A stretch of 64,000 nucleotides of DNA from Nanobdellota archaeon (GTDB lineage Archaea > Nanobdellota > Nanobdellia > Woesearchaeales > UBA583). A model generated the notes under the pieces. The model did not search any database, had not been told where the DNA came from, and saw only the letters and a list, made by a program, of their open reading frames with translations. Both the position numbers and the translations under genes were made by a program. The stretch lies in contig JAIUMM010000003.1 of NCBI GenBank assembly GCA_022565615.1, forward strand, positions 1,012 through 65,011, given 5' to 3'. The first letter of the stretch is position 1. Each line of letters opens with the position of its first letter. Of this stretch, positions 7,274 to 58,936 are shown piece by piece.

Positions 7274-7350
7274 TTACTTCTTCATAAATCTTCGTAGTAA
7301 TGAAAAATCTCCTCATGCAGGAATAACTATTCCTGCTGACCTTTGTATAA
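7274..7350 (-). pseudogene. fossil secY 3' end (echo of the last ~25 codons)
   Basis: The reverse complement of 7274-7312 reads GDFSLLRRFMKK-stop, against the secY C-terminus EDFSLLRRFMKK-stop. Similarity is weaker up to about 7350, with an in-frame TGA (7313-7315) and indels. Confidence 0.65.
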
Positions 7351-7405
7351 GACATTCGTTACAAAGTAACTCAATCTCATTAATTATTAAAAATAAAAAA
7401 TAAAA

Positions 7406-8827
7406 CTATTTTTTCATAAATCTTCTCAATAATGAAAAATCTTCCATACTCTCCCTACTTAATTGCTGATAGAATTGATATACAATCATCACAAGTAATA
7501 AAATTCCAGTTCCCTGAGTAAGAGCTGAGAACATATCTGCAAATGCTGCAAGTAGACCTACTCCAATACCACCCATAATAGTTAATGGGCCAATATATCT
7601 CTCAAGTAGTCTCTCAATAATTCTTACATCTTTTCTAAATCCAGGAATTTGTAACCCTGAACTTACAATTTGTTTTGCTTGAGAATAAGGATCCATTCCT
7701 GCTGTTTGAACCCACAAGTATGCAAAGAGTGTCGAACCACCAATCATAAGAAGAGCATATAATAATGCATGCCAATAAGTCATAAATAATGATAAATCTG
7801 TACTTGGATCTAAAAAATTAACCGGGGTGAACCAAAGAGCCATTCCAGAAATAGGATTTCCTGCAGGATCATGTTGTCCAAAAATATTTGTAGATACAAA
7901 ATTTCTAAATGCACTTGCATCATCAGGATTATTTGGTTCAACTGCTAATGCTAACAATGACACATTTGCTAAAATTGCTGAAATAAAAATAACTGGAATT
8001 ACTCCTGCATAGAAAAAATTTAAAGGCCATTTATAACTTTGACCTCTTACTTTACCAAATGAAAGAGGAATTTGAACATTTACGGCTTGAAAAAATACAA
8101 TGATAAGTAAAAGTGCTATTGTAACAGCAATTGGTAATAATACATCATTTGATAGTTGAAGCCATTGAGTATTAATTATATATATGAAAAATAAAAATAT
8201 TTTTCCAATAGGATTTTCCCCACTACCTGGGAAAAATTCAGCACTTGCTGTAAATGGTGAAAATAATTGAACAAATACTGCTGCTCCAATACCTGCTGCA
8301 ATAAATATACTCACACCTGACCCAAACCCCCATTTTTTTACAATTTCATCTAAATAAAATATAATTAAACCTCCTAAAATCAATTGAAGTACAATCAAAA
8401 AGAAACTATTAGCAATAGTGGGATCTGCCGAGAGCCCTCCCAATTGTACAAATATGAAAGCTTGAAGTATAATAAATACAAAAGTTAAAATCTTGTGAGT
8501 ACCATGATAAATAAACTTTCCATCTTCTGTATTCATATCAAAATTTAAAATTCCAGCTCCTTTAAACAATTGAAGCATAATTGAAGCAGTAACAATTGGA
8601 CCAATTCCTAACGTCATTAACGTTCCAATACTTGCTCCAAAAAGTAATTCTAATCTTTGTAGTTGTTGAGCAACTTCTCCTTGAATTCCATATAAAGGTA
8701 TAGCTGATAAAAATAAGAATAAAAATAGTATACCTAATGTCCATGTTAATCTTGTCTTCAAATCCCTCTTTTTTTCAGGTGATTTCACCTCAGGAATATG
8801 CATAAGTAAATTTCTATAAAAAGACAT
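7406..8827 (-). CDS. secY: preprotein translocase subunit SecY
   Basis: 473 aa with 10 TM segments; archaeal SecY/Sec61-alpha-like N-terminus and C-terminal region (GLQIPGFR...IERLLERYI). TAG stop. Confidence 0.95.
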   Translation of the reverse strand: MSFYRNLLMHIPEVKSPEKKRDLKTRLTWTLGILFLFLFLSAIPLYGIQGEVAQQLQRLELLFGASIGTLMTLGIGPIVTASIMLQLFKGAGILNFDMNTEDGKFIYHGTHKILTFVFIILQAFIFVQLGGLSADPTIANSFFLIVLQLILGGLIIFYLDEIVKKWGFGSGVSIFIAAGIGAAVFVQLFSPFTASAEFFPGSGENPIGKIFLFFIYIINTQWLQLSNDVLLPIAVTIALLLIIVFFQAVNVQIPLSFGKVRGQSYKWPLNFFYAGVIPVIFISAILANVSLLALAVEPNNPDDASAFRNFVSTNIFGQHDPAGNPISGMALWFTPVNFLDPSTDLSLFMTYWHALLYALLMIGGSTLFAYLWVQTAGMDPYSQAKQIVSSGLQIPGFRKDVRIIERLLERYIGPLTIMGGIGVGLLAAFADMFSALTQGTGILLLVMIVYQFYQQLSRESMEDFSLLRRFMKK

Positions 8828-9010
8828 ATTAAAATAAAAATAATATCAGTATTTAAAGTTTTTGTTATTATCTAAAAAATACATCTAAAGAAGCATTTAA
8901 AAATATAACAAATAAATTAATAATGTCATTTAAAATTTAAAAAAACTTTGATAATAAGTCAAAATCAATTATCTAGAATGTTAAAAATTACTTGTGATTA
9001 TTTTAAAAAA

Positions 9011-10463
9011 AAGGAGGTGATCCATCTGCAGGTTCCCCTACAGATACCTTGTGACGACTTAACCCTCCTTACTGAGCTCAGACTTGATACTTCCAAGATG
9101 AAAGAACCTCGTCTCAACCCAATTTGGCTGGTTTGACGGGCAGTGTGTCCAAGGAGAATGGACATATTCACCGGACGCTGATAACGTCCGGTTACTAGCG
9201 ATTCCAATGTCACGAGGCTGAGTTGCAAGCCTCGATTTAAACTAAGAATAGGTTTCGAGATTAGCTTCCCCTTTCGGAGTTGCGACCCATTGTCCTATCC
9301 GTTGTTGCGCACTTGTAGCCCAGGAGATTCGGGCTATACAGACCTGCCATGGCCCACACCTTCCTCCTTGTTTCCAAGGCAGTCTCTATAAGGTGCACCC
9401 AACGACTGGGTTAGCAATTATAGACATGGGTCTTGCTCGTTTCCTCACTTAAGAGGACACCTTGCAGCACGAGCTTATGGCGGCCATGCAGCACCTCTCA
9501 GCGTGTTAGGTAAAACCTTTAATCTGACCTTCATCCTGCTGTCGCCCCTGGTGAGGTGTTTGGTGTAGAATCCAATTAAACAGTACGCCGCACCGCTTGT
9601 AGTACTCCCCCGGCAATTCCTTTAAGTTTCGGCCTTGCGGCTGTACTCCCCAGGTGGCGGGTTTAACGCCTTCGCTGCTCCCCTGCGAAATCTCAAAGAT
9701 TTCGCAAAGCATAACCCGCAGAGTTTACGGCTAGGACTACCCGGGTATCTAATCCGGTTCGCTCCCCCAGCTTTCGTTCCTCACTGTCAGATCCGTCTTA
9801 GTGTGATGCCTTCGCCTTAGTTAGTCTGAAAAGGATTATAACATTTTACCGCTACCCAATTCATACTTCACACCCCTTCCGGTCTCAAGTCATGCAGTAT
9901 TTCTTGCAGATCTAAGTTAAGCTATAGATATTTAACAAGAAACTTACATAACCAGCTACGAACACTTTAGACCCAGTAATCATGATCTCCACTTGTGGCG
10001 CCGGTATTACCGCGGCTGCTGGCACCGGTCTTGCCCACCACTTATTCTTAATACACATTACGTATCAAAAAAGCCTATCTTTTGGATAAGCACAAGGAGT
10101 TGCCTTATCACACTTTCGTGCATTGTAAAGGTTTCGCGCCTGCTGCACCCCTTAGGGCTAGGACCCTTATCTCAGTGTCCTTCTGGAGGTCATTGCTCTC
10201 ACAACCCCTACCGATCTTAGACTTGGTGAGCCATTACCTCACCAACTATCTAATCGGCCGCCATCTCATCTTGTCTTCATTATTCCAACATTCCAGTTTA
10301 GAATAACTATGTCTTTTATACTCAGTTTCCCAAGTTTATTGAACACAACAAGGCAGATTAATGACGTGTTACTCAGCCTTCTGCGATTGATACAAGTACC
10401 AATTCACTTTCATGGCTTAATCCAACTCCTCTAGCGGAAATCTCACGCAGGATCAACGTGAAT
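9011..10463 (-). rRNA. 16S (SSU) rRNA
   Basis: The 3' end is the reverse complement of AAGGAGGTGATCCATCTGCAGG (9011-). The 5' end is ATTCACGTTGATCCTGCGTGAG (to 10463). The internal universal site GTGCCAGCAGCCGCGGTAA is present (about 10003-10021). About 1453 nt; no intron-sized insert seen. Confidence 0.95.
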
Positions 10464-58693: not shown

Positions 58694-58753
58694 TAGAAAC
58701 TCAAATTAAAAAACATAAGTTTTTTAAAGAGATTTTAATTTTATTTACTTAAT

Positions 58754-58825
58754 GCGTCTATAGCTCAGGGGTAGAGCGGCTGCCTTGTAAGCAGCAGGCC
58801 GTGGGTTCAAATCCCACTAGGCGCT
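58754..58825 (+). tRNA. tRNA-Thr (anticodon TGT)
   Basis: Acceptor GCGTCTA/TAGGCGC, D arm AGCTCAGGGGTAGAGC, anticodon loop CTTGTAA, T arm GTGGG-TTCAAAT-CCCAC. Confidence 0.9.
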
Positions 58826-58912
58826 TATTCTAAGCTTTATTGTGATTTTCACCCACTACGTGGTAAGCAAAAATTTATTCTAAATTTTTTTATATTTAGT
58901 AAAACTAAATAT

Positions 58913-58936
58913 TTCAAATCCCACTGGGCGCTTATT
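58913..58936 (+). repeat. 24-nt echo (1 mismatch) of the tRNA-Thr 3' end
   Basis: TTCAAATCCCACTAGGCGCTTATT at 58806-58829 is matched by TTCAAATCCCACTGGGCGCTTATT at 58913-58936. Confidence 0.8.

Follow-up and report, generated by a model that had tools for sequence, protein, structure and literature searches.

The stretch of DNA analysed here, called the window throughout, comprises 64,000 nucleotides (nt) of contig JAIUMM010000003.1 from a Nanobdellota archaeon of the Woesearchaeales (assembly GCA_022565615.1) and is AT-rich with ~27% GC; loci found through SecY assign it to the Woesearchaeota (DPANN). Five conserved genes of the window, i.e. secY, rpl39e and the genes of aIF2-alpha, tRNA-Arg(CCU) and tRNA-Thr(UGU), are each followed by a copy of their own 3' end. 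We denote the intact gene end X1, the spacer S and the distal copy, the echo, X2. Direct repeats matching the gene end flank a non-coding S of 33-96 nt and X1 leaves the gene uninterrupted, which is the arrangement of a duplicated attachment (att) site.

Gene-end echoes in the window

The first-pass annotation of this DNA had reported the succession of intact gene, short spacer and gene-end copy at offsets of 132 nt (secY), 78 and then 110 nt (rpl39e, two echoes), 54 nt (aIF2-alpha), 94 nt (tRNA-Arg) and 107 nt (tRNA-Thr), and every one of these echoes is present:

7406..8827, minus strand: secY gene (Pfam SecY, E=2.6e-63); X1 is formed by the last 12 codons, 7407-7442 (repeat D2)
7311..7405, minus strand: secY spacer S, 95 nt, with hairpins GTTAC/GTAAC and GCAGGAATA/TATTCCTGC; fold z = -3.1
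7274..7310, minus strand: secY echo X2, reading DFSLLRRFMKK plus stop in other codons; offset 132
12121..12291, minus strand: rpl39e open reading frame (ORF), 56 amino acids (aa); proximal copy 12121-12143 (repeat D7), offset 78 to 12043-12065
12067..12120, minus strand: rpl39e spacer S1, hairpin, T-run, hairpin
12043..12066, minus strand: rpl39e echo 1, ending in RNSLKL plus stop
11956..12042, minus strand: rpl39e spacer S2 (repeat D1); fold z = -2.95
11933..11955, minus strand: rpl39e echo 2, ending in TNSLKL plus stop
46353..46429, plus strand: tRNA-Arg(CCU) (ARAGORN and Rfam); proximal copy 46411-46430, from the T-loop to 1 nt beyond the 3' end (repeat D10)
46431..46504, plus strand: tRNA-Arg spacer S of the hairpin-core family; core hairpin 46462-46506; covariance model R1, 63.7 bits
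46505..46524, plus strand: tRNA-Arg echo X2, 20/20 identical, offset 94, followed by TTTTTT
47453..48226, minus strand: aIF2-alpha gene (Pfam EIF_2_alpha); proximal copy 47455-47475 (repeat D9)
47401..47421, minus strand: aIF2-alpha echo, 20/21 identical, offset 54, behind a 33-nt AT-rich spacer
58754..58825, plus strand: tRNA-Thr(UGU); proximal copy 58806-58833, from the T-loop to 8 nt beyond the 3' end
58834..58912, plus strand: tRNA-Thr spacer with an imperfect inverted T-arm copy (58838-58856), then three hairpins, the last abutting the echo; fold z = -2.6
58913..58940, plus strand: tRNA-Thr echo X2, 26/28 identical, offset 107

The 56-aa ORF has no Pfam match; we assign it to rpl39e on the basis of its size and its place in a ribosomal-protein cluster (S24e, proteasome, S7, S12 and L7Ae nearby). 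The second rpl39e unit lies 110 nt further (11921-12010 vs 12031-12120), and its spacer S2 shares with S1 a 39-nt core that is 97% identical, the first hairpin being different (TTGCCA/TGGCAA in S2 vs ATATAGC/GCTATAT in S1).

The echoes were scored in a scan in which the last 45 nt of each of 83 window features were compared with the 250 nt downstream, the null being 981 cross-gene pairings with 3 trivial overlaps set aside. The five echoes score 17-21 and exceed all 981 pairings (maximum 16, 99th percentile 13). The same procedure applied to the 5' ends of the window yields a maximum of 13, the same as the null, and gene interiors yield a maximum of 12. Taken together, the three sets of controls (cross-gene, 5'-end and internal) rule out chance and low complexity; in the window the echoes are specific to 3' ends and stand far above what chance would yield. 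The weakest of the five cases is aIF2-alpha, whose echo scores 18 against the null maximum of 16. A candidate sixth, decayed echo follows a DUF357 gene:

30846..30871 (vs 30776-30801), plus strand: candidate DUF357 echo; gene 30518-30808; 21/26 identical, score 14, null P ~0.01

The echoes also survive independent assembly, as the Logan contig L043 equals window positions 45610-48591 with 0 mismatches and reproduces the tRNA-Arg and aIF2-alpha echoes base for base; an assembly artefact is ruled out by this contig. A further contig, L020, extends into the first rpl39e spacer S1 and ends within it. Each window echo runs into sequence unlike S, i.e. the order is X-S-X and not the X-S-X-S of a simple tandem duplication. 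Head-to-tail repetition of X-S units does occur secondarily, namely in relatives, where L001 carries two identical 94-nt units, L002 109-nt units at secY and L035 99-nt units.

X-S-X structures systematically break short-read assemblies. The Logan/ENA contigs L020, L042 and L044 terminate inside repeated gene ends (tRNA-Thr T-arm, rpl39e spacer), and N-runs break the arrays of X-S units in an NCBI metagenome-assembled genome (L002 7475-7574, L035 17492-17591).

Several other readings were rejected. Diversity-generating retroelements, with template and variable repeats, do not fit, since it is core genes that are targeted and, by inspection, mismatches also occur outside adenines. Of an ectopic spacer integration of the CRISPR kind only the aIF2-alpha spacing (21 + 33 nt) is reminiscent, whereas the repeat lengths vary and the spacers form conserved families. 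Readings as C/D-box or H/ACA RNA, bulge-helix-bulge intron or split tRNA found no support by eye or in a permissive Rfam search; in the window only rRNAs and tRNAs reach the Rfam gathering score and the spacers give nothing meaningful at E up to 10. A single superfamily for all spacers was likewise not upheld: the motif AACGA..CAAAGK occurs only twice in the window, both times in spacers, but this pattern was defined post hoc and is not relied on.

Gene ends and echoes differ mainly at silent positions

The same X-S-X architecture is found in the assemblies of related organisms, which display empty sites, tandem arrays of X-S units and decayed echoes. The nearest public genomes are those of three organisms, placed by the identity of their enolase to that of the window organism: GCA_047602745.1 (loci L001, L021 and L033; 87%), the organism in the Logan runs SRR324568xx (L027-L032 and L038-L041; 87%) and GCA_964621065.1 (L002 and L035; 77%).

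The two copies of the secY end (7407-7442 vs 7275-7310) are identical at 31 of 36 positions. X1 and X2 show 6 nt differences and 0 aa differences (P=3e-5 under random substitution), with the codon changes TTG/CTA, AGA/CGA, AAA/AAG twice and TAG/TAA, and the secY copies of L002 are likewise separated by 3 nt and 0 aa differences (P=0.006). In rpl39e, echo 1 and echo 2 differ by 6 nt and 1 aa (P=0.003) and share NSLKL-stop through multi-step codon changes (AGT/TCT, TTA/CTC, TAA/TGA). This is a signature of purifying selection. A neutral pseudo-copy could not stay limited to silent changes while the silent sites of its partner become saturated; X1 and X2 must therefore both have served as working gene ends, in different lineages, before they were juxtaposed. 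The exchange of gene ends between lineages is backed by copy differences that are synonymous only.

Comparison with L001 points in the same direction. For secY and rpl39e, the real gene ends of L001 resemble the window echoes no less than they resemble the window's own ends: the secY end of L001 matches the window echo at 31/36 and the window's own gene end at 29/36 positions (manual count), BLAST aligns window echo and L001 gene end with 23/24 identities over the central part, and rpl39e echo 1 matches the real rpl39e end of L001 at 24/25 positions. L001 itself has neither spacer nor echo after secY and none after rpl39e. In L002, secY is followed by the tandem array, whose spacer is homologous to that of the window with compensatory hairpin changes and which terminates in just 10 nt of X, and rpl39e is followed by a homologous spacer and a decayed echo. 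The secY and rpl39e inserts are thus shared by the window and L002 but lacking in L001, although by enolase identity L001 is the closer relative and L002 the more distant one. Together with the tRNA-Arg(CCU) site, where the insert is found only in the window and the site is empty in four relatives (L021, L024, L026, L038-41), this gives occupied and empty states of the same sites among relatives, i.e. insertion polymorphism. At the aIF2-alpha site a possible decayed counterpart is seen in L026 and none in L021 and L024.

Within each genome X2 tracks X1, down to the residues in which the genomes differ from one another (RR vs RQ, S vs T), which indicates homogenisation, via arrays or gene conversion, or else recent events. 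A 50-nt secY echo with a different spacer is present in L003 (SecY identity 57%).

Two observations on neighbouring sequences may be added. On a Nanoarchaeota contig (L010 200-480), secY is immediately followed by three tandem ~94-nt units that show no sequence relationship to our spacers and are not accompanied by a secY-end copy. In one relative, ~1,115-aa ORFs with many 75-nt in-frame tandem repeats flank aIF2-alpha and yaaA (L024 6400-7800, L025 1-110).

A hairpin-core family of spacers at different targets

According to the first-pass annotation the spacers are unrelated to each other. This holds among the spacers within the window; beyond it, the secY and rpl39e spacers have the same-site homologues in another genome described above, and the tRNA-Arg spacer belongs to a family that shares the core …GYAAGAACGA…AAGTGTCTCNCA and occupies seven sites in four related genomes:

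window, tRNA-Arg CCU: single insert
L002, tRNA-Arg UCU: spacer 3' of the gene, echo 16/20 identical
L035, tRNA-Thr: array of 99-nt units
L027, tRNA-Thr: diverged copy
L001, rpl39e 5' end: two identical 94-nt units, antisense; the repeated target includes the start codon
L002, rps24e 5' end: insertion with a 17-nt repeat
L021 19400-19433, minus strand: 43 bits, 175 nt upstream of a histone gene, with no recognisable flanking target repeat

The covariance model finds exactly these copies in 327 kb. In the core stem 95.7% of the cells are paired and four pairs have changed on both sides, and only 1/500 shuffles is as good. Across the four tRNA sites (tRNA-Arg CCU and UCU, tRNA-Thr in two genomes) the spacers are collinear, whereas outside the tRNA sites homology is confined to the core hairpin. 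Since the spacers are collinear end to end at different targets, the short unit itself has moved, which argues against an independent erosion of large elements. Hence, for this family, the exhaustive decay of integrated elements that the first-pass annotation had offered as one explanation is unlikely. Nor is the phenomenon restricted to 3' ends, as had been supposed, because the family occupies the 5' ends of rpl39e and rps24e in relatives.

The flanking repeats of the family are 17, 20, 20, 21, 29 and 37 nt long, i.e. they are not the fixed short target-site duplications of miniature inverted-repeat transposable elements (MITEs) and DDE-type transposition. Terminal inverted repeats are lacking, as the two ends of S do not complement each other; the only inverted pairing is that of the target copy with an internal part of S. 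The pattern of the family is compatible with the conserved 3' end, variable 5' extent and variable-length target duplication of non-LTR retroposons such as short interspersed nuclear elements (SINEs), although a simple duplication is at odds with the synonymously diverged copies of X. A scan of public metagenomes with the core motif returned nine chance matches in GC-rich, unrelated contigs, and a scan of viral sequences returned no match.

At the tRNA-Arg(CCU) site of L026, a 220-nt intergenic stretch between yaaA and the tRNA gene (9431-9650) is bounded by the inverted repeats CTCCACATTA…TAATGTGGAG; it may be a small element with terminal inverted repeats at the site that is occupied by the hairpin-core insert in the window.

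Some spacers contain inverted copies of their targets

Six members of the family carry, on the 5' side of the core, a partial copy of the target in inverted orientation, and on its 3' side the direct echo. The inverted segments match the start of the respective echo:

tRNA-Thr: GGGATTTGAAC
tRNA-Arg: GATTCGAACC
rps24e: AAAATGAA
rpl39e: AAGGAAAATG…GATAT

All six predicted folds contain a closing stem formed by the inverted segment and the start of X2. The tRNA-Thr spacer of the window is not a member of the core family, yet it has the same layout, matching the reverse complement of its target at 15/19 positions (0/500 shuffles as good); homology to the post-echo flank of L027 extends over its first 26 nt. 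For L035, L027, L002 and the window tRNA-Thr spacer 0-1/500 shuffles contain an inverted copy of the own target that is as good. Thus, both the core family and the window tRNA-Thr spacer possess two imperfect inverted target copies that could fold into a target-like duplex.

The repeats at tRNA genes start in the T-loop, at CGAATC (after TT), at TTCAAATCC or at AAATCC (after TTC), and extend 1-21 nt beyond the tRNA. This identity block, with its start in the loop, its stem symmetry and its course through the 3' end, has the form of a tyrosine-integrase att site, and repeats reaching from the T-loop to past the 3' end are a known class of such sites.

Integrase elements at tRNA genes of relatives

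Between tRNA-Thr and YecM, L035 (11423-17436), from a Nanoarchaeia/Woesearchaeota metagenome-assembled genome, and also L036 carry an element of ~6 kb at the same tRNA-Thr site as the window insert. Its genes are those of a tyrosine integrase of 527 aa (PF00589, 33.9 bits) and of a superfamily 1 helicase of 895 aa, besides two small ORFs; CCACTAGGCGC repeats delimit it, and the array of X-S units comes immediately after. A second element (L037 1-8513) encodes an integrase that is 40% identical and a helicase, with CCCTCCGACCGG repeats beside a reverse-complemented tRNA end. As both elements sit at tRNA ends, classical tRNA-integrating elements exist in this clade. The L035 integrase has a single protein homologue, that of L037, in 5.8 billion sequences, and a search for viral relatives found none; the two elements may constitute an undescribed family of integrative plasmids or viruses of DPANN archaea. 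An origin of the echoes by integration, as suggested in the first-pass annotation, is backed by the ~6-kb element, which has the tRNA-Thr site and the tRNA-end repeat in common with the window insert.

Other features of the window

The window contains six tRNA genes (ARAGORN and Rfam). The genes for 16S (9012-10463) and 23S rRNA (43107-45955) are unlinked, being separated by a 33 kb gap on the same strand, and tRNA-Ala(UGC) lies 113 nt upstream of the 23S gene. A 17-nt exact direct repeat, TTTTAAACTTCAAATTA on the gene strand (41922-41980, 42 nt apart), spans the start codon of ORF 41475-41960, one copy being located immediately upstream of the ATG and the other within codons 8-13. At 33476-34625, ~770 nt without ORF are followed by a 125-aa ORF that matches only the C-terminal positions 185-238 of 239 of Hydrolase_4, which is probably a disrupted alpha/beta hydrolase gene.

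Origin of the echoes

The structures of the window look like miniature relatives of integrating mobile elements. Based on our findings we propose, with a probability of about one half, that they are miniature, non-autonomous, att-flanked insertion elements at gene ends that undergo secondary array formation, homogenisation and loss by recombination between their repeats. In this scheme, an S of 33-96 nt would be inserted into a gene that is conserved and highly expressed, within its last 17-45 nt, X1 keeping the gene whole. An att-type (Campbell-like) recombination between the chromosomal gene end and a gene-end copy on incoming DNA would place the gene-end copy of another lineage beside the resident one. 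At least one spacer family may be a discrete element, consisting of a 35-45 nt hairpin core with an inverted partial target on its 5' side and a direct target on its 3' side, and the order X1, filler, inverted X', core, X2 is the product that might be expected if a folded single-stranded hairpin att site recombined with a duplex target. The repeats, the insertion polymorphism, the family with its hairpin, the signature of purifying selection and the integrase element at the tRNA-Thr site of a relative are observed; how recombination proceeds, by which enzyme and through a single-stranded intermediate, is inferred. Once X-S-X was established, unequal crossing-over or repeated integration could generate the tandem arrays of X-S units, gene conversion could keep X2 similar to X1, and recombination between X1 and X2 would delete the insert, resulting in an empty site with an echo-like gene end.

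Several points weigh against this proposal. A Pfam scan of ~40 ORFs of the window detected no integrase (PF00589), recombinase, transposase or reverse transcriptase, the lack of an integrase having already been noted in the first-pass annotation; the inserts themselves have no coding capacity, in contrast to the separate ~6-kb element of L035, which encodes its integrase. An autonomous partner of the spacers was identified nowhere, and the integrase elements of L035 and L037 contain no copy of the core. To serve five different targets, numerous site-specific integrases would be needed, or else guidance by homology or structure. In ~430 kb searched, spacers of the secY and rpl39e type occur only at their own orthologous sites, and their mobility is read from presence and absence; no inverted target copy that is significant vs shuffles is present in the secY, rpl39e and aIF2-alpha spacers. 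The core family comprises only a handful of sequences with modest fold z-scores (+0.45 to -2.2), and the aIF2-alpha echo, with its 33-nt AT-rich spacer that lacks a hairpin, could be plain slippage.

Other explanations were weighed against the same data. Transposition or retroposition of SINE type, in which a small element, of RNA or DNA, would be inserted at staggered breaks with the core as its conserved 3' end and X1/X2 would be fill-in duplicates, is unlikely, if not without merit: it would account for repeat lengths of 17-37 nt, for spacers of 41 to 90 nt as with 5' truncation, for the conserved and precisely joined 3' end GTGTCTCNCA in combination with the loss of homology 5' of the core in the non-tRNA copies, and for the lack of terminal inverted repeats. 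A fresh duplication, however, yields identical copies, whereas the secY and rpl39e copies differ at six positions that are all or nearly all synonymous; moreover, no reverse transcriptase or transposase is found among the window ORFs scanned, and an inverted, target-specific copy inside S is not expected from simple fill-in. We consider it improbable that the inserts are scars of large tyrosine-integrase elements, i.e. viruses or plasmids, with S being the remainder between attL and attR after deletion of the body. The elements in L035/L036 and L037, the former at the same tRNA-Thr site and with the same tRNA-end repeat, favour such scars, and archaea offer well-documented cases of tRNA-gene fragments that integration has left behind (in Thermococcaceae, PMC9897764; also PMC3293823). 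On the other hand, collinear core-family spacers at different targets and in different genomes would require identical deletion end-points to recur, coding remnants are missing, the hairpins retain compensatory changes and the units of the arrays are identical, and five to six wholly eroded elements per 64 kb of a small genome are implausible.

A local tandem duplication of the gene end with its native downstream hairpin, by slippage or unequal crossing-over and without any mobile DNA, may well apply to aIF2-alpha, where the spacer is short and AT-rich. As an account of the echoes in general it has a small probability as well: the identical-unit arrays in L001, L002 and L035 are what it predicts, the end of the L002 secY array in 10 nt of X resembles a microhomology-bounded duplication, and the secY and rpl39e spacers are known from their own sites only, but the core family is present at seven unrelated sites, the window echoes are X-S-X and not X-S-X-S, and synonymous multi-step codon differences are incompatible with duplication in situ followed by neutral decay. 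Quite improbable is a functional RNA element, with S and X2 forming a small RNA that consists of a hairpin scaffold and a gene-end tail, or acting as terminator or insulator selected where highly expressed genes end. In its favour, the stem shows conservation with covariation, T-runs follow the echo, the gene body is always 5' of S at the six echo-bearing sites and X2 tracks X1 in each genome; yet the spacers lack an Rfam match even at the permissive threshold, the tail is in sense orientation at tRNAs and in antisense orientation at the rpl39e and rps24e 5' ends, which leaves no consistent RNA target logic, and absence at orthologous sites of close relatives marks the element as dispensable. 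That collapsed or mis-joined repeats have simulated the echoes is scarcely conceivable, even though the public contigs L020, L042 and L044 break at these sites and N-runs interrupt the L002 and L035 arrays, as the copies are diverged instead of identical, L043 reproduces two echoes exactly and the architecture recurs in unrelated assemblies.

Relation to known systems

A literature search revealed nothing on such elements in Woesearchaeota or DPANN archaea. A close parallel to the proposed miniature insertion elements is provided by the attL/attR duplications that tyrosine-integrase elements leave at the ends of tRNA, tmRNA and protein genes, as in archaeal elements of the SSV or pNOB8 type and in ssrA islands, where terminal gene repeats of 12-50 nt flank the insert and a copy carried by the element restores the gene. 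An identity block starting in the T-loop of tRNA genes, tandem pile-up at one site, as in the tandem 3'-end repeats of the ssrA islands of Dehalococcoides (PMC3146451), and an intact example in L035 are further similarities. In contrast to these systems, the inserts described here are 33-96 nt long, non-coding and without integrase, contain an inverted partial target copy, and one family uses at least 5 targets, including the 5' ends of ribosomal-protein genes.

Cis-mobilizable elements (CIMEs) of streptococci are att-flanked, integrase-less derivatives of integrative and conjugative or integrative and mobilizable elements (PMC5704250, PMC7563491). Like the inserts, they are non-autonomous, lie between attL and attR, are presumed to be mobilised in trans and occur in tandem with autonomous elements, as does the array beside the L035 element. 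CIMEs are kilobase-sized deletion derivatives, however, whereas here a hairpin module of ~40-90 nt forms the unit, with collinearity from site to site.

Two imperfect inverted target copies that lie on either side of a spacer and can fold into a duplex mimic of the target are also a feature of attP(+) of CTXphi, an integrative mobile element exploiting Xer (XerCD), and of integron attC sites. The integration product that we derived ourselves from the published CTXphi model, i.e. X1, element, inverted copy, spacer, X2, would match the anatomy observed, and tandem arrays are typical of these systems; this parallel is an analogy, not a demonstrated relationship. Here the targets are tRNA T-arms and ribosomal-protein 5' ends that vary from copy to copy instead of dif or attI, the whole element is little more than the hairpin, and the likeness is drawn from anatomy. 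With MITEs and other small non-autonomous transposons the inserts have in common that they are short and non-coding, exist in several copies, show insertion polymorphism and are flanked by direct repeats. They differ from them in lacking terminal inverted repeats, in their long and variable repeats (17-37 nt), in a frequency of about one copy per 50-100 kb and in their confinement to gene ends. Finally, mobile mitochondrial ORF/endonuclease insertions such as that of Allomyces atp6 displace the C-terminus of a gene and encode a homing endonuclease. In both cases a foreign segment supplies the 3' coding end and the resident end persists as a downstream pseudo-copy that differs mainly synonymously; unlike the Allomyces type, the inserts contain no ORF and also hit tRNA genes and 5' gene ends.

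Implications

Little is known of the mobile DNA of DPANN archaea such as the Woesearchaeota, whose genomes are tiny. Our findings imply that the ends of the most conserved genes, i.e. tRNAs, ribosomal proteins, secY and aIF2-alpha, are recurrent sites of recombination, where short non-coding cassettes enter and leave and where coding pieces from other lineages are swapped in. For annotation this means that partial tRNA and gene fragments arise and that contigs and scaffolds break at arrays, and for phylogenetics that marker genes can carry chimeric 3' ends. The structures could be used as natural tags for recombination between uncultured lineages.

An att-flanked unit of less than 100 nt with a conserved hairpin and target-matched arms would either be smaller than any integrative satellite described so far or mark the trace of a recombination mechanism that has gone unrecognised. 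More speculatively, and we regard this as doubtful, the hairpin-core spacers might represent a new minimal class of mobile elements whose target specificity is written in their own stem. The inverted and direct target copies would fold into a duplex mimic of the target site, the conserved apical core would be recognised by a recombinase, of the host or of a helper, which would recombine mimic and matching gene end, and an altered stem would re-programme the target (tRNA-Arg, tRNA-Thr, rpl39e 5' end, rps24e 5' end). If this is true, such stem programming would be a DNA-level, self-templated analogue of guided recombination that acts on the ends of essential genes in ultra-small archaea.

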